A stretch of 44,502 nt of DNA from Patescibacteria group bacterium (GTDB lineage: Bacteria; Patescibacteriota; Minisyncoccia; Portnoybacterales; UBA2143), in the NCBI GenBank assembly GCA_018829245.1, contig JAHJUH010000067.1:1-44502 (forward strand). The letters are read 5' to 3'. The notes beneath the pieces were generated by a model. That model did no database searches. It saw only the letters and a list, made by a program, of their open reading frames with translations, and had not been told where the DNA came from. This document shows positions 4,477-41,933 of the stretch, in pieces. The position numbers and the translations under genes were made by a program. Position 1 is the stretch's first letter. Each line of letters opens with the position of its first letter.

Positions 4477-5465
4477 AAGAATCAATCGTCTCGTTTTTTT
4501 TATCCAAAATAGATATTAATAAGTTTTCTGATTTCATTAAAAGATCAGTGGTTTTATCTATTCCTTATAAAATAATTGTTCAAAGGTTAATCGATTGGAA
4601 TTTTCCATATCATGTTTTTCTTGAATCAACCAATATATGTAATTTACATTGCAAAATTTGTACAAGGAATATAGCGCCCATAAAACTTGGTTCTATGGAT
4701 TTTGAATTATTTAAAAAGATTGTGAATGAAGCTAGTGTCTATGGCTCCAGAAATTTTTCACTCCATCTTTTTGGCGAACCACTTTTAGCACCAAATATTA
4801 TTCCGATGATTAAATACATCAAACAGAAAAATAATAAAAATACTGTTTTAATCACTACAAATGGAGTATTACTTAATAATAAAATATCTCAAGAAATTAT
4901 TATGAATGGCGTAGACAAAATTATTGTCAGTATTCACGGCGCCAACAAAGAACAATATGAAAATATGACCGGTACTGATAATTTAAATAATGTTGAAGAA
5001 AACATTAAAAATCTAATTAATTTAAAAAACAAAAAGAATAAACCTAAAATATTTTTGCGAATGGTTAGTTTTAAAAAAAATACTACAGAAATAAAAAAAT
5101 TCTATAAAAGATGGTCATCTTATCCAGTTATTATAGACATTAAAGAACCACATAATTTTGGTGGACAAATTGAAACCGGACGCTCAATAGATAGCTTACC
5201 TAAAAGATACCCCTGTTATCACCTTTGGTTAGCCCCAGGAATTAATTGGGATGGACAGGTTTCGATTTGTTGCTGTGACACTTTTAAAGATGCGATTATC
5301 GGCAATGTTAATCAAAATAGCCTACATAAAATTTGGAATGGGGAAAAATTAAAACAATATCGCGATTATCATTTGAGAGGCAAATATGATAAAATTCCCG
5401 TATGTAAAAACTGCGATGTTTGGACAACTTATCCAGATATTTTCTTTGAATATCAAAAAAAATAA
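4461..5465 (+). CDS. Radical SAM protein with C-terminal SPASM-like Cys-rich domain
   Basis: The CNLHCKIC cluster motif follows FLESTNI. C-terminal cysteines are CYHLW, SICCCD and CKNCDVW. The alternative start ATG 4473 would give an ATGA overlap with the upstream TGA stop (4474-4476). Confidence 0.85.
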   Translation: MSKKMKESIVSFFLSKIDINKFSDFIKRSVVLSIPYKIIVQRLIDWNFPYHVFLESTNICNLHCKICTRNIAPIKLGSMDFELFKKIVNEASVYGSRNFSLHLFGEPLLAPNIIPMIKYIKQKNNKNTVLITTNGVLLNNKISQEIIMNGVDKIIVSIHGANKEQYENMTGTDNLNNVEENIKNLINLKNKKNKPKIFLRMVSFKKNTTEIKKFYKRWSSYPVIIDIKEPHNFGGQIETGRSIDSLPKRYPCYHLWLAPGINWDGQVSICCCDTFKDAIIGNVNQNSLHKIWNGEKLKQYRDYHLRGKYDKIPVCKNCDVWTTYPDIFFEYQKK

Positions 5466-5473
5466 AAAAAAAT

Positions 5474-6913
5474 ATGAAAATTTTATTAATTAATCCTCCT
5501 TATATAAACTTTGAAGGAATGAAAGAATCAGGCGGACATATTATGCCCTTTAATTTAGCTTATTTAGCTGCTTATTTGAGACAAAGGAATGATTGTTCGG
5601 TTAAAATTTTTGACACCGAAGCGCTTTCCCTTAATTATTCTGAAATAAAACAATATTTAGCTAAAGAAAAGCCTGATTTGATTGGTTTTACTTGTCTTTC
5701 TCCTACGATTAATCATATTCTTAAAATCTGTCGAATAGTAAAAAAGGATTTAAATCTAAAATCATCAATTGTTTTAGGAGGGATTCATCCAACTATTTTC
5801 CCTAAAGAAACAATTAAAAATCAATATATTGACTTTGTGGTTGTTGGCGAAGGAGAAATCACTTTCACTGAATTAGTCAAAGCTATTCAAGAAAAAAGAA
5901 CTGATTTTGAAAATATTAATGGCTTATATTATAAAAAGAATGGAGAAATTGTTAAAACCCAACCTCGAGAATTAATTTCCGATTTAGATACTATTCCCTT
6001 TCCAGCTCGAGACCTTTTTAATTTAGATCTTTATTCTTCGGCTCCAACTAAAAAATTAACTGATGAACAATGTTCTCCGATTCTAACTAGTCGTGGCTGT
6101 ACTTTTAATTGTATTCATTGTGTTTCTAAGAGTATTTGGCAAAGAAAAATAAGATATCGCAGTTCTGATAATATAATTTCGGAAATTGAAGAATGTATTA
6201 ATAAATATAATATCAAAGAATTTAGTATTCTTGATGATAATTTTACTCTTAATAAATCTAGGGCTATAGAATTTTGTCAAAAAGTAATTGAAAAAAAATT
6301 ACTGATTGCTTGGATTTGTTTTTCTAGAGCGGATGGTATTAATGACCAATTAATAAAAATAATGGCAGAAGCTGGTTGTAAAAAAATATCCTTAGGGCTT
6401 GAATCTGGCTCTCAAAAAATATTGAATTTGATGCGTAAACAAACAACTATCGAACAAGGCAAGAAAGCCGTTGAAATAATCAGAAAAAATAACATTTTGG
6501 TTCACGCTAGTTTTATGATTGGCAATATTGGAGAAACAGAAGAGACCGTTAAGGAAACTATTAATTTTGCTAAAAGTTTAGATTTAGACAATGCTTCTTT
6601 CTTTATTACCTGTCCAGTCCCTGGCTCTGATTTGTATTATTACGCTCAAAATGAAGGTTTTATTGAAAAAAATACTTCCTGGGAAATGTTTGCTCCTTTA
6701 AGTAATACGCCACCTGTTTTAACTCAAAATAATCTCAGCCAAAATGATTTGATTTATTGGCAAAAAAAAGCTTTTCGAAAATTCTATTTTCGGCCTAAAT
6801 ATATTTATCGTAAATTAAAACAGATTAAGTCATGGGAGGGAATTAAAACAATTTTTCAAGGAATTAAAATATTATTAAGAATTCTAATCAAACCCAAAAG
6901 TAGAACTACTTAA
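5474..6913 (+). CDS. B12-binding domain radical SAM protein (class B), paralog R2
   Basis: MKILLINPP, DLIGFTC, IVLGGIHPT, VVVGEGE. Cluster motif GCTFNCIHC. C-terminal FRKFYFRPKY. Confidence 0.9.
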   Translation: MKILLINPPYINFEGMKESGGHIMPFNLAYLAAYLRQRNDCSVKIFDTEALSLNYSEIKQYLAKEKPDLIGFTCLSPTINHILKICRIVKKDLNLKSSIVLGGIHPTIFPKETIKNQYIDFVVVGEGEITFTELVKAIQEKRTDFENINGLYYKKNGEIVKTQPRELISDLDTIPFPARDLFNLDLYSSAPTKKLTDEQCSPILTSRGCTFNCIHCVSKSIWQRKIRYRSSDNIISEIEECINKYNIKEFSILDDNFTLNKSRAIEFCQKVIEKKLLIAWICFSRADGINDQLIKIMAEAGCKKISLGLESGSQKILNLMRKQTTIEQGKKAVEIIRKNNILVHASFMIGNIGETEETVKETINFAKSLDLDNASFFITCPVPGSDLYYYAQNEGFIEKNTSWEMFAPLSNTPPVLTQNNLSQNDLIYWQKKAFRKFYFRPKYIYRKLKQIKSWEGIKTIFQGIKILLRILIKPKSRTT

Positions 6914-37048: not shown

Positions 37049-38175
37049 ATTAGATCCTTCCAAAAACTAACTATTTTACCAATAATCTTTTCTTGATTGA
37101 ATCTTTCTTTAACCATTACTTTACCAGCTTGGGCTATTTCCTCAGCTTTATCTGGATTATTAAGTAAATAAAGAACCTTTTTAGCCAAAGCTTCGCTATC
37201 ACCAATCGGTACTAAAAATCCATTGACTCCATCTTTAATTACTTCCTTGGAACCAGTTGTCTCTGTAGCCACGACAGGAAGCCCAGAGGCCATAGCTTCG
37301 ACTAAAACCTTACCAAAGCTCTCTGAGCAAGAAGAAGAGACATAAACATCTGAAGCGTGATAATAGTTAATTAAATCTTCTTGTTTAATTTTTTTAACCG
37401 AATTTAAGATTAAATTATCATCCCCTTTAATTTTACCTGTTAAAGAGATATTAGCTCCTAATTGCCAAAAAGCAAGTTTTTTGTAGTCCTCATAAACTAA
37501 TTCAATCGTTTTATACAATGTCTTATAATCCTTAGAAGGATCTTTTCGTCCGACATTAATAATCGTTTTATGATTCTTATTCTTTAATCTTAACTTATTA
37601 ACTTTTTTCTCATCATATTTTTCAAATTTTTCTACATTAACTGGCGTTGGAATAACTCTAATTTTTTTATTAGGAACACCAACTTTGATTAATTTGTCTT
37701 TAATCCCAGAACTGACAACTCGAACTCCATCAGCTCCACTAACAACAAACTTACTTAATAAAAGAAAAAACCAATTAAACCACCAACGTCCTTTTTCAAA
37801 AAGCCAATATTTATTATTCCAAAAATCACCATGAAAATGGACTAACAAAGGAATCTTAAATCTTTTTTTAACAAACCAACCTGCTAATCCAGTTAAAAAG
37901 GGATCTTGGCAAACAATCAAATCATATTTATCTGGCCAATAAATTCTTTTAGCTATTTCAAAAGCATCAAGAATGTAATTTATCTTATTTTTTGAATTAG
38001 TTGGATGAACCTTTAGATTCTGACCAAATTCTTTCTTTTTAAAACCTTTTTTAGTAAAAACAATAATATCCAATTGCCCAGCTTCTTGAGCATATTTTTG
38101 ATGGCGTTCTAAAACATCGCCGCTATAATCGGCGCCTAATAAAGTCCTATCAATGCTAATCATTAAAATTCTCAT
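37045..38175 (-). CDS. GT4 (GT-B fold) glycosyltransferase
   Basis: SESFGKVLVEAMASGLPVVATETTGSKE and NGFLV. Confidence 0.85.
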   Translation of the reverse strand: MRILMISIDRTLLGADYSGDVLERHQKYAQEAGQLDIIVFTKKGFKKKEFGQNLKVHPTNSKNKINYILDAFEIAKRIYWPDKYDLIVCQDPFLTGLAGWFVKKRFKIPLLVHFHGDFWNNKYWLFEKGRWWFNWFFLLLSKFVVSGADGVRVVSSGIKDKLIKVGVPNKKIRVIPTPVNVEKFEKYDEKKVNKLRLKNKNHKTIINVGRKDPSKDYKTLYKTIELVYEDYKKLAFWQLGANISLTGKIKGDDNLILNSVKKIKQEDLINYYHASDVYVSSSCSESFGKVLVEAMASGLPVVATETTGSKEVIKDGVNGFLVPIGDSEALAKKVLYLLNNPDKAEEIAQAGKVMVKERFNQEKIIGKIVSFWKDLI

Positions 38176-39656
38176 GTTTTTGTGACAAACCTTTTAGCTA
38201 ATTTATAATCCCAAGGAAGCCAGAAACATTTCATTTTCCATCTTAACTGACATAATAATACAAAAAAAAGTTTTAAAAGCTTATTTACTTTAATGGTTGA
38301 ACCCATAGCACTTTCGATTGAATGAGCTCCAAATCTGACATAGGCCTCTAATGATTCTATAAACCCAGGGTTATCAAGCCAAGGAAATTTACTGATATCT
38401 AAATAATTTAATTCATCTTTAACTGTTTCTCCCCACTGATCTAGTGATTCAGGTTCTTGCCAGCCCACGGCTAAGCATTCTTTGTAAAGTTCTGAACCAG
38501 GATAAGGTCTAAAAGCCTGAGGCCCTAAAATTTGAACCTGATCGCCTAATTTAACTAACTCATCAATTAATTCTAATGTTTCCATTACTTCACTTCTAGT
38601 TTCGCCCGGTAAACCAGCCATAAAGGAATATTGGGGAATAATTCCATACTTTAAACACATCTTAGCTGAATTGATTACATCTTCGGGCATAATGTCTTTC
38701 TTAATTTTTTTTAAAATACGAGGACAACCTGATTCTGCACCAAAAGACAGTAGATAGCAACCAGATTCTTTTAACTTTTTAATAAATTCTTCATCAATTA
38801 TTCCTTCTCTTAAATAATTAGCCCGAACAGTTGTTTCCCAGGGTGTAATTAAATCTTCTTCTATCATTCCATTAATAATCTGTTTAGCTCTTTTAATATC
38901 AACAAAAAAGTTTTCATCCCAAAAACGAAGTTTTTTTGCTTTCCCGCCCTGAAAGGGCGAGGTCTCGCCTTTGGCGGAAAAATATTCTTTGTTTTTTATT
39001 ATCCTTATATCTTCTAGAACTTGCTCAGCTGTTCTTGTCCGCCAATGGTTTTTAAGAATAGCGTTGATACAAAAAGTACAGCGATGAGGACAACCTCGAG
39101 AAGTTAAAGAAGGAATTAAATGAAGATTTTCTAAAATTTCTTTAGGCACTAACTCCCAATTAAAAAGAGGCATTTGAGCTGGATCATGTAATTCTCGTGG
39201 TTGGTTAATAATAACCTCATCTCCTGATTGATAGGCAATCCCTTTAATATCATTTAGAGATTTACCATTAACAATATCCAACATAGTTAACTCACCTTCG
39301 CCATAACAGACCATATCAATCAAAAAATGACTAGCTGTTTGTTTAATAAAGAAACTCGGGTGAGGACCACCCCAAATAACCTGACAATCAGAGTTATTTT
39401 CTTTAACTAAACGAGATAATTCTAGGGCCTCTGGAATTTGTGTCGTCATAACTGAAATTCCGACATAATCACAATCTTTAACTTTTTCTTTAACTAAATC
39501 TAAATAATTTTTCTGCCTGACCCCGTCAATGATCTCCACCTTAATATTATAAAAATCTAAATATGTAGCAATACTTAATAATCCAACGGAAATAGAGCTA
39601 TCGTAATTCTCCTTATTAATATTAAAAGCCGGATTGATTAGTAAAACTTTAGACAT
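38172..39656 (-). CDS. B12-binding domain radical SAM protein (class B), paralog R6, carrying a 15-codon GC-rich insert
   Basis: MSKVLLINPA, YVGISVM, VIWGGPHPS, VCYGEGE. Cluster motif GCPHRCTFC. The tracked ORF starts at 39671, but ATG 39656 matches the paralog N-termini. The insert SAKGETSPFQGGKAK lies at 38934-38978. Confidence 0.9.
   Translation of the reverse strand: MSKVLLINPAFNINKENYDSSISVGLLSIATYLDFYNIKVEIIDGVRQKNYLDLVKEKVKDCDYVGISVMTTQIPEALELSRLVKENNSDCQVIWGGPHPSFFIKQTASHFLIDMVCYGEGELTMLDIVNGKSLNDIKGIAYQSGDEVIINQPRELHDPAQMPLFNWELVPKEILENLHLIPSLTSRGCPHRCTFCINAILKNHWRTRTAEQVLEDIRIIKNKEYFSAKGETSPFQGGKAKKLRFWDENFFVDIKRAKQIINGMIEEDLITPWETTVRANYLREGIIDEEFIKKLKESGCYLLSFGAESGCPRILKKIKKDIMPEDVINSAKMCLKYGIIPQYSFMAGLPGETRSEVMETLELIDELVKLGDQVQILGPQAFRPYPGSELYKECLAVGWQEPESLDQWGETVKDELNYLDISKFPWLDNPGFIESLEAYVRFGAHSIESAMGSTIKVNKLLKLFFVLLCQLRWKMKCFWLPWDYKLAKRFVTKT
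38943..38977. repeat. GC-rich multi-hairpin element E1 embedded in frame in radical SAM gene R6
   Basis: CCCGCCCTGAAAGGGCGAGGTCTCGCCTTTGGCGG. CGCCCT pairs with AGGGCG, GGCGAG with CTCGCC, and CGCC with GGCG. GC content is far above the flanking A/T runs. Confidence 0.6.
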
Positions 39657-39657
39657 A

Positions 39658-40818
39658 TTACAAATTCTCAAAAATCATTACTGTTTCTTTAACTAGATCG
39701 TCCCAAGAAAATCTTTTTAAATCTTCCTTGGCATTACTAACCAATCGATTAGCTAGTTCTTGATCATCTAGAATTCGACTAATCGCTTTAAACCATTGTC
39801 CTTTATCCCGATAATCAACTAATAATCCCGTTTGACCGTTTTTAATTGTCTCTAGATTACCACCAGCTTTAGTGGTGATAACAGGTATCCCCACCTTCAT
39901 GGCCTCCAAAATAACAAAGGACATTCCTTCATAATTTGTATTTAAAACAAAAACATCAGCCATTTTTAAATAAGCAACAACTAATTGACGGCTAATCCGA
40001 CCAACAAAAAAAACATTTTCCTCTACATCTAAATCAAGAACTAATTTTTCTAAATTCTTCCTTTCTGGACCCTCGCTAATAATGACGAATTTAATATCTC
40101 CATATTTCTCAATAAGTCGAGGCATAATTTTGATCAACATATCAACACCCTTCCAAGGGGTTAAGCGAGCATTAGTTAGAATAACTCGTCCAGAAATATT
40201 AAGTTCTTTTTTTAAATCTACTTTCAAATCATCGTTTAAATCTAAAAAATCAACTGAGTTGTAAATTACTTTAATTTTCTCCTCGGCTACCCCAATTTTT
40301 TGAGCTAAATCTTTAAGAAAATTACTGACAACAATGACTTTATCAGAATTAAGTAAAATCTTTTTTCTAATTTTTTTACGCTTTTCAATTAAATGAGAGT
40401 ATTGCTTATCCTGAAAAGTTAAAATATCATCTGTAGTTATTCCCTGACTTAAAGCCGTTTCCCAAGCTGAATCACCAACAAACCTAGTCACCAACTTCTT
40501 ACCCAAAAATCTTTTGATCAATAGGGCGGTTAAGCCAGCTGTATATAAATCCTGGTTGTAAATAATATCTGATTTTAAAGCCAACCAAAAACCTTTGATT
40601 AAATAAAGAAAACTTTTTAAAAAAGAAGGCCATTTATCAGAAATAACTTTAACTGAATAAGGATATTTTTTTGCTTCATTTTTATTACCGAAAGTTAAAA
40701 CAGTTACCTGATAACCACGTTCAATAAGATCTTTATTAAGCTCCTTTAATAAGGTTGGTGGTCCACCAACTCCTTTTAAGAAAACTCCAGTTAAAATTAG
40801 AATTCTATTATTTCTCAT
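39658..40818 (-). CDS. GT4 (GT-B fold) glycosyltransferase
   Basis: GVGGPPT near the N-terminus, YEGMSFVILEAMKVGIPVITTKAGGNLE, GLLV. Confidence 0.85.
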   Translation of the reverse strand: MRNNRILILTGVFLKGVGGPPTLLKELNKDLIERGYQVTVLTFGNKNEAKKYPYSVKVISDKWPSFLKSFLYLIKGFWLALKSDIIYNQDLYTAGLTALLIKRFLGKKLVTRFVGDSAWETALSQGITTDDILTFQDKQYSHLIEKRKKIRKKILLNSDKVIVVSNFLKDLAQKIGVAEEKIKVIYNSVDFLDLNDDLKVDLKKELNISGRVILTNARLTPWKGVDMLIKIMPRLIEKYGDIKFVIISEGPERKNLEKLVLDLDVEENVFFVGRISRQLVVAYLKMADVFVLNTNYEGMSFVILEAMKVGIPVITTKAGGNLETIKNGQTGLLVDYRDKGQWFKAISRILDDQELANRLVSNAKEDLKRFSWDDLVKETVMIFENL

Positions 40819-41933
40819 AATTTATTGAAAATATTTTCCATCTTTTGAGCAACGCTATCCCAAGTATATTTTTCCCTAACTAGATTTAACCCATTATTGA
40901 TTAATGTTTCCCTAAGTTCATCATTCCCTAAAATTTCTTTAATCTTTTCGGCAATATCTTGAGGATTATTTACCTCACAAAACAAACCTGTTTTTCTGTC
41001 TTCCAAGAAATCAACTATTCCACCCACGGGCGTAGCGATAATTGGCACTCCAGCCGCCATTGCCTCTAGAAAAGAAATGCCTAGACCCTCAGATAAAGAA
41101 GCTCGAACAAAAACATCGGCTGAAGAATAGTATTTTGCTAAATCTCTATGATTAATCTCCCCTTCAAAAACAACTTTATCTTCAAGATTTAATTTTTTGG
41201 TTAAATTCTTTAACTCTTTTTCTTGTTCTCCACTTCCAATAATTATAATTTTAAATAAAAAATCTAAATATTGTCCGGCTTTAATTAAATCAGCTACGCC
41301 ATTTTTCTTGACTAGGCGAGAGACAGTTAAGATTTTGAGGTCCGACCTTTGCAAAGGTCGGACCTCAAAATCTGATCTAAATACATCTAAATCAACTCCA
41401 TTAGGGACAACTTTGATGGGACATTTTGCTCCCATATTTTTAGCCCAATTAGATAAAAAATTGCTAATCGCCTGGATATAGTCAGTTTGCTTAAAAATCT
41501 GATAAAACCAGTATTTAAAAATACCAACTTTTTTTAAAATTTCTTCTGGAGGATCACCTTCTTGGAGGGTTAATAGCCATGGTATATGAGGAAATTTTTT
41601 CTTAAAACGTAAACCTAAAAACCCACCGAAAGAGGCCATAATAGACCAAACTAGCTTATAATCTCTTTTTTTATTTAAACTTATTGCCTTTTTTAGACCT
41701 AGAAAAGGCAAGAGATATTTATCGAAATTAGAACCAAAACCAACCCGGTAAACATTAATATTATTAATTTTCTCTTCTTCTTTTAACTCTTTCTGTATTT
41801 TGGCTGTGATCATATCAAACTCAAAACCCTCAATTCGGTCTGTTATTTCCTTAACAGCCACTTCTGCCCCACCTATTAAAGGAAAATAAGCCGTAGAAAA
41901 AATTAAAACTTTTGGCACTTGATTATTGGCCAT
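40815..41933 (-). CDS. GT4 (GT-B fold) glycosyltransferase containing a perfect 44-bp palindrome in its interdomain linker
   Basis: IGGAEVAV near the N-terminus, SEGLGISFLEAMAAGVPIIATPVGGIVD. The palindrome at 41330-41373 encodes DFEVRPLQRSDLKI. Confidence 0.85.
   Translation of the reverse strand: MANNQVPKVLIFSTAYFPLIGGAEVAVKEITDRIEGFEFDMITAKIQKELKEEEKINNINVYRVGFGSNFDKYLLPFLGLKKAISLNKKRDYKLVWSIMASFGGFLGLRFKKKFPHIPWLLTLQEGDPPEEILKKVGIFKYWFYQIFKQTDYIQAISNFLSNWAKNMGAKCPIKVVPNGVDLDVFRSDFEVRPLQRSDLKILTVSRLVKKNGVADLIKAGQYLDFLFKIIIIGSGEQEKELKNLTKKLNLEDKVVFEGEINHRDLAKYYSSADVFVRASLSEGLGISFLEAMAAGVPIIATPVGGIVDFLEDRKTGLFCEVNNPQDIAEKIKEILGNDELRETLINNGLNLVREKYTWDSVAQKMENIFNKL
41330..41373. repeat. Perfect 44-bp palindrome E2 (22+22, no loop) inside a GT4 coding sequence
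   Basis: AGATTTTGAGGTCCGACCTTTG|CAAAGGTCGGACCTCAAAATCT. I verified it base by base as its own reverse complement. Confidence 0.9.

Follow-up and report, generated by a model that had tools for sequence, protein, structure and literature searches.

The association of repetitive extragenic palindromic (REP) sequences, and of the inverted REP doublets known as REPINs, with a REP-associated tyrosine transposase (RAYT, or TnpA-REP) was reportedly described by Nunvar in 2010 and by Ton-Hoang in 2012. To our knowledge, such REP-RAYT systems have been studied almost only in Proteobacteria, where the repeats are extragenic by definition. The subject of this work is a perfect 44-bp palindrome that lies inside a family 4 glycosyltransferase (GT4) gene of a Patescibacteria group bacterium, on a stretch of 44,502 nucleotides (contig JAHJUH010000067.1 of assembly GCA_018829245.1, positions 1 to 44,502 of the forward strand) that will be called the window from now on. 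We propose that this palindrome is quite probably a REP-class (REPIN-like) element, belonging to a Patescibacteria family built on the dyad AGGTC-N-GACCT and carried in frame in a permissive linker of the glycosyltransferase.

As in the REP/REPIN-RAYT systems (Bertels and Rainey 2011, PMC3116915; Messing 2012, PMC3479197), the palindromes of the Patescibacteria family are short and GC-rich, are present in many copies, often as inverted doublets forming a hairpin, and flank a Y1/HUH gene, with a lineage-specific repeat for each RAYT and the RAYT itself in conserved synteny. Unlike REPs and REPINs, each arm is itself a dyad, its orientation being carried by a single central base, and many copies are perfect and loop-less. 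The location is likewise not extragenic, in that the window copy stands within the GT4 open reading frame (ORF) and about one third of the family is intragenic.

Palindromes within genes have precedents. Rickettsia palindromic elements (RPE) are said to have been described by Ogata in 2000. REPs lying inside genes, frequently repair genes, are on record for Opitutus, Thauera, Rickettsia (RPE-4, RPE-6) and other bacteria (Di Nocera 2013, PMC3733652), and the Patescibacteria copies resemble these elements in being palindromes that are translated in frame, in unrelated proteins, and found at orthologous sites of related species; the repair-gene hosts are uvrA for the published intragenic REPs and UvrB and UvrD for the present family. 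An earlier note on the window, made from its letters alone, had drawn the analogy with Rickettsia elements. It holds for in-frame translation, but the closest class is instead REP/REPIN-RAYT: RPE-1 is ~100-150 bp long and adds 30-50 residues, whereas the Patescibacteria element has 28-44 bp, encodes 10-14 residues and lengthens nothing, so that neither the size nor the added segment of RPE is found. There is no sequence relationship, the host phylum is another, and, in contrast to RPE and the intragenic REPs, a link to a RAYT is seen. Small non-autonomous repeats readable in frame also include miniature inverted-repeat transposable elements (MITEs), such as the Coxiella QMITEs (PMC5896051) and the Neisseria Correia elements. 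Classical MITEs derive from insertion sequences with a DDE transposase and show target-site duplications, whereas the Patescibacteria family goes with a Y1/HUH enzyme, no duplication was seen, and MITE-like terminal inverted repeats are confined to a 135-bp carrier repeat of one genome (bin-405, described below). Finally, the cyanobacterial HIP1 and the DNA-uptake sequences are likewise accommodated by codon choice and conserved at orthologous sites, but they are single motifs of 8-12 bp, spread lineage-wide at ~1 per kb, and not 17-bp-spaced pairs with a patchy, transposase-linked distribution.

In the literature searched, no paper linked REP, REPIN, RAYT or IS200 with the candidate phyla radiation (CPR), and a search by sequence string returned unrelated primer matches only. 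The intragenic REP phenomenon is not categorically new; a REP-RAYT system new for Patescibacteria is the best-supported reading. What is distinctive here is the phylum, the missing GTAG/CGTC tag, the nested-dyad and often loop-less architecture, the high intragenic fraction and the lack of net insertion.

A perfect palindrome in the linker of a GT4 gene

The palindrome occupies positions 41330-41373 and reads AGATTTTGAGGTCCGACCTTTG|CAAAGGTCGGACCTCAAAATCT, with 22-nt arms, no mismatch and no loop, exactly as the earlier note had described it; it ends at the non-complementary positions 41329/41374 (A/G). In a repeat search it ranked first and was by far the longest inverted repeat of the window (GC ~30%), the runners-up among the perfect inverted repeats having 15-nt AT-rich arms and loops. 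The number of perfect palindromes with 22-nt arms expected by chance, calculated from the base composition of the window, is ~44,500 x 0.29^22, or ~1e-7. The folded single strand forms a 20-bp stem, with calculated energies of -39.4 kcal/mol as RNA (z -7.2 against shuffles) and of -23.1 kcal/mol as a DNA hairpin (z -10.5), and it is a stem-loop of the kind by which REPs are recognized (a palindrome of 20-40 bp).

Its design is a nested one. A 28-bp conserved core, AGGTCCGACCT-TTGCAA-AGGTCGGACCT (41338-41365), is the part common to copies in other genes and genomes, and comprises two 11-bp palindromes, each with a single central base: AGGTC-C-GACCT (unit 1, 41338-41348) and AGGTC-G-GACCT (unit 2, 41355-41365). 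The second is inverted with respect to the first, as its central base is the complementary one, and their centres lie 17 bp apart. The core is bordered by a left outer arm, AGATTTTG (41330-41337), and a right outer arm, CAAAATCT (41366-41373), and the symmetry centre of the whole coincides with a codon boundary, TTG|CAA. No direct repeat flanking 41330-41373 was found, and the palindrome therein lacks the terminal inverted repeats and target-site duplication that characterize a MITE.

The host gene (40815-41933, minus strand) is intact and encodes a 372-residue GT4 glycosyltransferase with the Pfam domains Glyco_transf_4 and Glycos_transf_1, between which the element is located. The position first reported for it was confirmed: the minus-strand translation of the palindrome, DFEVRPLQRSDLKI (residues 188-201), stands between GVDLDVF and ILTVSRL. 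On the coding strand, the K-I and the first base of the L in the conserved strand ILTVSRL come from the outer arm nearest to it (41330-41337). Homologues of the protein number thousands, the closest being annotated as Patescibacteria and Nealsonbacteria. In an alignment of 33 homologues, the segment from GVD..F to ILTVSRL was one hypervariable linker of 10-27 residues, and the peptide VRPLQRSDL was present in only two of them, P0001 (92% identical) and P0004 (75%), whose genes share 92% and 76% DNA identity, respectively, with that of the window.

Comparison of these genes revealed compensatory maintenance of the palindrome. In P0001 (locus L002; also JGI contig L087) it is again perfect over 44 bp, a GAG->AAG change on one arm being accompanied by CTC->CTT on the other. 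In P0004 (locus L001), a perfect 28-bp palindrome, AGGTCAGACCTCTGCAGAGGTCTGACCT, shows four differences from the window core, which form two complementary pairs (CGA->AGA with TCG->TCT, and TTG->CTG with CAA->CAG). All palindrome differences between the window and L002 or L001 occur, then, as complementary pairs, and at this site the element has persisted in at least three diverged lineages with its arms perfectly complementary. A peptide conserved among orthologues on diverged, non-palindromic DNA, which the earlier note had named as the outcome contrary to a DNA-level element, is not what was observed. Orthologues without the peptide (L092, L093) have ordinary, unrelated AT-rich linkers and no palindrome. 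Since the palindrome or a compensated variant was found at the same codon position in ENA ERZ27247128 (L002), JGI Ga0180007 (L087) and Logan SRR29092999 (L001), four independent assemblies carry the structure, which is therefore no assembly artefact.

An AlphaFold2 model of the protein, built on the 33-sequence alignment, had a mean predicted local distance difference test score (pLDDT) of 90.7. The only internal segment with a pLDDT below 50 corresponds to residues 189-195 (FEVRPLQ), and the C-terminal Rossmann domain has LKILTV (residues 199-204) as its first strand. In the model, the element fills the flexible or disordered linker between the two Rossmann domains and extends into the conserved strand, and the gene product is probably functional. 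The low-confidence loop and the compensatory changes bear out the suggestion of a DNA-level element tolerated in a permissive protein loop. Conversely, the 14-codon insertion that an alignment of GT4 orthologues might have revealed did not appear: the linker of the window protein is not longer than that of its orthologues.

A dispersed family of dyads and its RAYT genes

The pattern AGGTCNGACCT-N6-AGGTCNGACCT (20 specified bases) was scanned across 185,579 GTDB species genomes and matched 84 stretches, against ~0.5 expected by chance. Most matches are in metagenome-assembled genomes (MAGs) of Patescibacteria (Saccharibacteria, Paceibacterota/Parcubacteria, Curtissbacteria, Levyibacteriota and WWE3), with some in low-GC MAGs labelled Gammaproteobacteria; in the MAGs JAHJOV01 and CAIZMI01 it occurs on 13 contigs apiece. 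The family is built of a dyad of 11-13 bp, (N)AGGTC-N-GACCT(N'), arranged in pairs or triplets with a period of 16-18 bp, with up to 15 units in some 8-kb loci and ~1-2 units per kb in some genomes. Inverted and direct dyad pairs stand at 70:22, in keeping with the inverted doublets that define REPINs. Consensus flanks differ genome by genome (cggctgTTATCCACAgg follows every copy in one Saccharibacteria MAG), and in JAHJOV01 several units are part of composite intergenic repeats of ~200 bp. The exact 28-mer core was found at five further loci of the JGI metagenomes, and an identical core is present in RsmA genes (L030, L085, L088, L090, L091), in a UvrD-type helicase gene (L088) and in the bin-405 repeats. 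Among the options listed in the earlier note, that of a miniature mobile palindromic repeat is the one borne out by this multi-copy, dispersed family, which is adjacent to RAYT genes and in frame in many unrelated genes.

Maintenance of complementarity is not restricted to the GT4 site. When 82 distinct copies were compared with column shuffles, the base flanking each unit formed a Watson-Crick pair in 70 of them (33 expected), the central bases of the two units in 58 (32 expected) and the outermost spacer bases in 64 (29 expected), counts that do not represent independent events because the copies are partly related. Pairing across copies was strictly Watson-Crick, with few G-T pairs.

An HUH/Tyr protein was first noticed in locus L032, among the ORFs that span the copies. 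When every ORF of the fetched loci was then searched locally with phmmer, six loci from six genomes (~0.6 expected among 75) were seen to contain a Y1_Tnp ORF that has both NHFHLL (HUH motif) and RYIHLNP (Tyr motif). Dyad units are found within ~100 bp of both ends of this ORF in L077, L006, L047 and L012, and inside and adjoining it in L032; in L055 the ORF is cut by the contig end and upstream units alone are visible. The proteins are assigned to Pfam Y1_Tnp (PF01797), and NCBIfam NF047646 (REP-associated tyrosine transposase) was the best match for all five tested, that of JAHJOV01 alone passing the curated cut-off. Their best PDB match, at weak sequence similarity, is E. coli TnpA-REP (4ER8), and their close homologues, which number thousands, are RayT or transposase of Patescibacteria where named. 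As a control for ascertainment bias, four RAYT homologues were fetched by protein alone, the motif being ignored: all four of these independently chosen CPR genes proved to be flanked by perfect or near-perfect palindromes of their own. In L094, the closest of the four, whose RAYT is 77% identical to that of JAHJOV01, the sister unit AGGTT-N-AACCT, a compensated variant of AGGTC-N-GACCT, is present 11 times in 11.6 kb.

The REP beside the JAHJOV01 RAYT gene, CATTTTG-AGGTCGGACCT-CAAAATG, has the same flank as the window palindrome, whose left outer arm contains ATTTTG. The idea that the outer arms are host codons copied into the palindrome was dropped after this finding, which makes it probable that the outer arm stems in part from the element. 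There are also outer arms peculiar to one site, as shown by GAAGATG in the UvrD-type gene of L088 versus AGATTTTG in the window.

Regarding their genic context, a copy is enclosed by an ORF of 200 codons or more, and is 25 codons or more from either end of it, in 29 of 83 cases (35%); random 28-mers drawn from these loci give 66%. The copies are read in all three frames, as EV(R/G)P, RSDL or G(R/P)TS. Host genes confirmed by Pfam are GlmS, UvrB, UvrD/PcrA, PBP2, MurT, Der/EngA, RsmI, a P-type ATPase, WecG/TagA and a PEP-utilising enzyme, and the identity of RsmA/KsgA was confirmed by a PDB match. Essential genes are often among the hosts, the copies being read there as loop peptides. The in-frame copies stand mostly in linkers or next to them, and several are at or near the boundaries of Pfam domain matches, that of Der/EngA being placed between its two GTPase domains. 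The 40-bp palindrome of the window, ATTTTG-core-CAAAAT, is identical in RsmA of JAHJOV01 (L030) and of two metagenome contigs (L088, L090), and, while RsmA genes are 70% identical in DNA, a 30-bp core is 100% identical (~8 differences expected; chance 0.7^28, ~5e-5). Moreover, the element-encoded DILRSDLCKGRTS… matches DVLKADVKSVIEE… of B. subtilis KsgA residue for residue, with RSDL in the place of the native KADV. A clean 14-codon insertion is unsupported on both counts, the GT4 linker not being lengthened and the RsmA residues aligning with native ones.

Several further arrangements of the units were recorded. In MAG CAIZMI01 (bin-405), a 40-bp palindrome is contained in a ~135-bp repeat with terminal inverted repeats GTAACCGCTCACAGGT.../...ACCTGTGAGCGGTTAC, a MITE-like carrier found on many contigs and in both orientations (L008, L016, L027, L038, L050, L053, L057, L061, L063). 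In Saccharibacteria MAGs (L006, 7450-7500; L007, L026, L044, L077, L084), the sequence after each copy is ...GTTATCCACAG..., with the DnaA-box consensus TTATCCACA inside it. At L012 (2129-2251), eight tandem units AAGGTCCGACCTCCAA with a 16-bp period are placed directly downstream of the RAYT gene. Among the four RAYT genes fetched by protein, that of L097 is flanked on both sides (4830-4900 and 5500-5570) by a perfect, loop-less palindrome of 58-60 bp made of TGGAGC-W-GCTCCA dyads, with the nested-dyad design of the window element and an unrelated sequence. Copies in excision-repair and helicase genes include those of L025 (UvrB, residues 502-511) and L088 (502-2487, UvrD-type helicase, residues 466-475). 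The RAYT neighbourhood is conserved among L094-L097 and L047 (NTP_transferase, sigma-70 family, DUF5667 and large LTD/beta-helix proteins), which suggests a vertically inherited, single-copy RAYT; RAYTs have been described as single-copy and vertically inherited (PMC5581495).

Proposed spread and upkeep of the element

The presence, in related genomes, of a RAYT gene flanked by AGGTC-N-GACCT dyads leads us to infer that the family was dispersed by a RAYT, the analogues being E. coli TnpA-REP (PMC3479197) and REPINs (PMC3116915). Folded as a single strand, the two inverted 11-bp dyads, 17 bp apart, give a hairpin whose stem has 13-22 bp. In the proposed mechanism, this hairpin would presumably be the selected feature and could serve as a substrate for RAYTs, enzymes that act on single-stranded DNA. 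In CPR genomes, with almost no intergenic space, copies falling in frame in permissive protein segments might survive, and the GT4 copy would have been kept, and translated, in this manner in the disordered linker where it is found. Complementarity of the arms could be preserved by arm-templated repair or, alternatively, because the hairpin is under selection, whether to be recognized by a RAYT or for some other function at the DNA level.

A number of observations weigh against this interpretation. The units lack the 5' GTAG/GTGG or CGTC tag of REPs and start with N-AGG, the base before AGGTC being variable (A, G, T or C) and co-varying with its partner. The window contains no second copy of the motif, nor a single unit with one mismatch or fewer, and no RAYT ORF; of the checks proposed at the outset, the count of copies and the search for a RAYT-like transposase were positive for related genomes (six of them in the case of the transposase) and negative for the rest of the window. 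Single 11-bp dyads and arrays of 16-bp period resemble binding sites of dimeric proteins and cannot form hairpins alone. The GT4 linker with the element is among the shorter ones, the host proteins show no net insertion and no target-site duplication was seen, so a simple cut-and-paste insertion would need later deletions to explain the unlengthened hosts. Entry without net gain could be explained if variable loops were trimmed afterwards, if short-patch recombination brought about a replacement, or by templated conversion. In addition, the three element-bearing GT4 genes do not form one clade in a neighbor-joining tree, which gives no grouping in support of a single origin; on that topology, two gains at one site or several losses would be needed.

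These points give some room to other explanations, each of which covers part of the features, although none accounts for the combination of a patchy multi-copy distribution, genome-specific flanks and RAYT flanking. The one that survives best, while still unlikely, is that the dyad is the site of a host DNA-binding protein, either an operator or a nucleoid, partition or segregation site of the parS, matS or Noc type, the GT4 copy being kept for its chromosomal position. Sites of these types also occur inside genes. A dyad of 11-13 bp around one central base is the typical footprint of a dimeric helix-turn-helix protein, the tandem array of eight units at a 16-bp period adjoins a gene, and both the complete conservation of the core at orthologous sites in genes 70% identical and the host proteins without net insertion would fit such a site. 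However, the distribution is patchy, covering a few dozen CPR species representatives where there are many thousands, and the copy number ranges from one pair in 44 kb to more than one unit per kb. Nor would a host site be expected to have genome-specific consensus flanks and copies embedded in a MITE-like repeat, to flank RAYT genes consistently, or to be replaced in other RAYT lineages by sister motifs, as REP-RAYT co-evolution predicts.

Considerably less probable is an RNA-level element of the operon mRNA, in which the 20-bp stem would act as a site for RNase III or other processing, as a stabilizer, or as a translational pause at the domain boundary. The RNA hairpin is indeed very stable, its stem is located exactly at the inter-domain linker, changes among orthologues are compensatory, and REPs in other bacteria affect mRNA stability (PMC3733652). 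Yet the same sequence is found in unrelated genes, in all three frames and in intergenic DNA, the pairing is strictly Watson-Crick with few G-T pairs, and the centre is self-complementary, which an RNA loop does not need. The palindrome has no match to an Rfam family, a covariance-model search returning only sub-threshold matches to miRNA hairpins. An effect on RNA may exist as a by-product and would leave the family unexplained. A gene-specific RNA structure was ruled out because one sequence of 28-40 bp recurs across unrelated genes and genomes, and a bidirectional terminator because the T-run is 5' and the A-run 3' of the stem, the reverse of the terminator order.

It is most improbable that the palindrome originated in place, as a neutral by-product of template switching during replication (quasi-palindrome correction). 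A perfect, loop-less structure in a gene that was not lengthened could be produced in this way, as could outer arms that vary by site (AGATTTTG here, GAAGATG in L088) and stay perfectly complementary, but independent local events cannot yield an identical sequence of 28-40 bp in unrelated genes and genomes and beside RAYT genes. Template switching is plausible, instead, as a means of keeping or extending complementary arms. Hardly more credit can be given to a DNA-uptake signal accumulating by biased uptake and recombination in naturally competent CPR bacteria: Saccharibacteria are naturally competent (PMC10187176), some genomes have ~1-2 units per kb, and the motif overlays native residues without adding length, as uptake sequences do, but the 44.5-kb window holds one pair and no single units with one mismatch or fewer, the distribution is patchy and not lineage-wide, and the fixed-spacing pairs are linked to RAYT genes. 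A viral origin found no support in a scan of IMG/VR, which gave 0 matches to the element.

Returning to the REP-class reading, it may be asked whether selection retains the intragenic palindromes in place, at fixed positions within essential genes of the minimal CPR genomes. This is put forward tentatively, and we regard it as rather doubtful; it is raised because of the 100% conservation of the core at orthologous sites of 70%-identical genes, together with strictly compensatory change. If it were true, it would point to a domesticated REP-RAYT partnership with a DNA-level role (for example in replication, repair or recombination), or to hairpin-dependent regulation, exerted from within coding sequence. 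A related possibility is an active process of arm-to-arm conversion, by which the palindromes would stay perfect and could extend into host codons.

The REP-class reading would widen the scope of REP-RAYT systems to the Patescibacteria, a very large radiation, still poorly understood, whose genomes are tiny and densely packed; one copy in three is part of a protein-coding sequence there, RsmA, UvrB, UvrD, Der, GlmS and PBP2 being among the proteins concerned. It would account for odd GC-rich peptide inserts in CPR proteins (…EVRP…, …RSDL…, …GRTS…), and would provide markers for strain typing and for finding assembly breakpoints, as well as a caution about element-derived loops for annotators and structure predictors. 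The family is also natural material for studying how selfish or domesticated DNA persists without intergenic space and how perfect palindromes are kept up, two evolutionary questions that the compensatory changes and ultra-conserved cores make directly testable.

Other repeats and the surroundings of the GT4 gene

Some repeats picked up in the course of the work were set aside. High-GC actinobacterial loci (L018, L072, L082 and L086; Amycolatopsis) contain TAGGTC(C/G)GACCTA repeats, and a Treponema MAG (L020, L034) has arrays of GGTAGGTCAGACCT-like units. The matches in Amycolatopsis, Kitasatospora, Gordonia and Solirubrobacteraceae and the Treponema arrays are probably unrelated operator- or iteron-like repeats, or chance occurrences in GC-rich DNA. 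A structure with 60-nt arms in L048 (~1757-1890) reaches the contig end and is probably a fold-back assembly artefact.

Within the window, a GC-rich imperfect palindrome, E1 (CCGCCCTGAAAGGGCGAGGTCTCGCCTTTGGCGG, 38940-38981), encodes the 14-residue in-frame insert FSAKGETSPFQGGK in a B12-binding radical SAM gene (38172-39671, minus strand). None of the paralogous B12-binding radical-SAM proteins, whether encoded in the window or in related contigs, has this insert, and E1 is identical in the close relatives L002 and L087; no repeats of it were found in any fetched locus. The earlier note had pointed out a resemblance between E1 and an arm of the GT4 palindrome. The match exists, at 38959-38973 and not, by one base, at 38960-38974, but it is weak (12 of 15 bases) and, with ~0.2 such matches expected by chance, not significant alone, so that the link is unproven. 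E1 is possibly a second intragenic palindromic element, either a decayed or degenerate one or one unrelated to the main family.

Both host genes belong to a run of ~30 consecutive minus-strand ORFs (7830-41933), many with 4-bp overlaps and with a persistently negative GC skew. Four or more GT4 glycosyltransferases are encoded in the run, along with several B12-binding radical-SAM proteins, and the whole has the look of a single, very long gene cluster for surface glycan or cell envelope.

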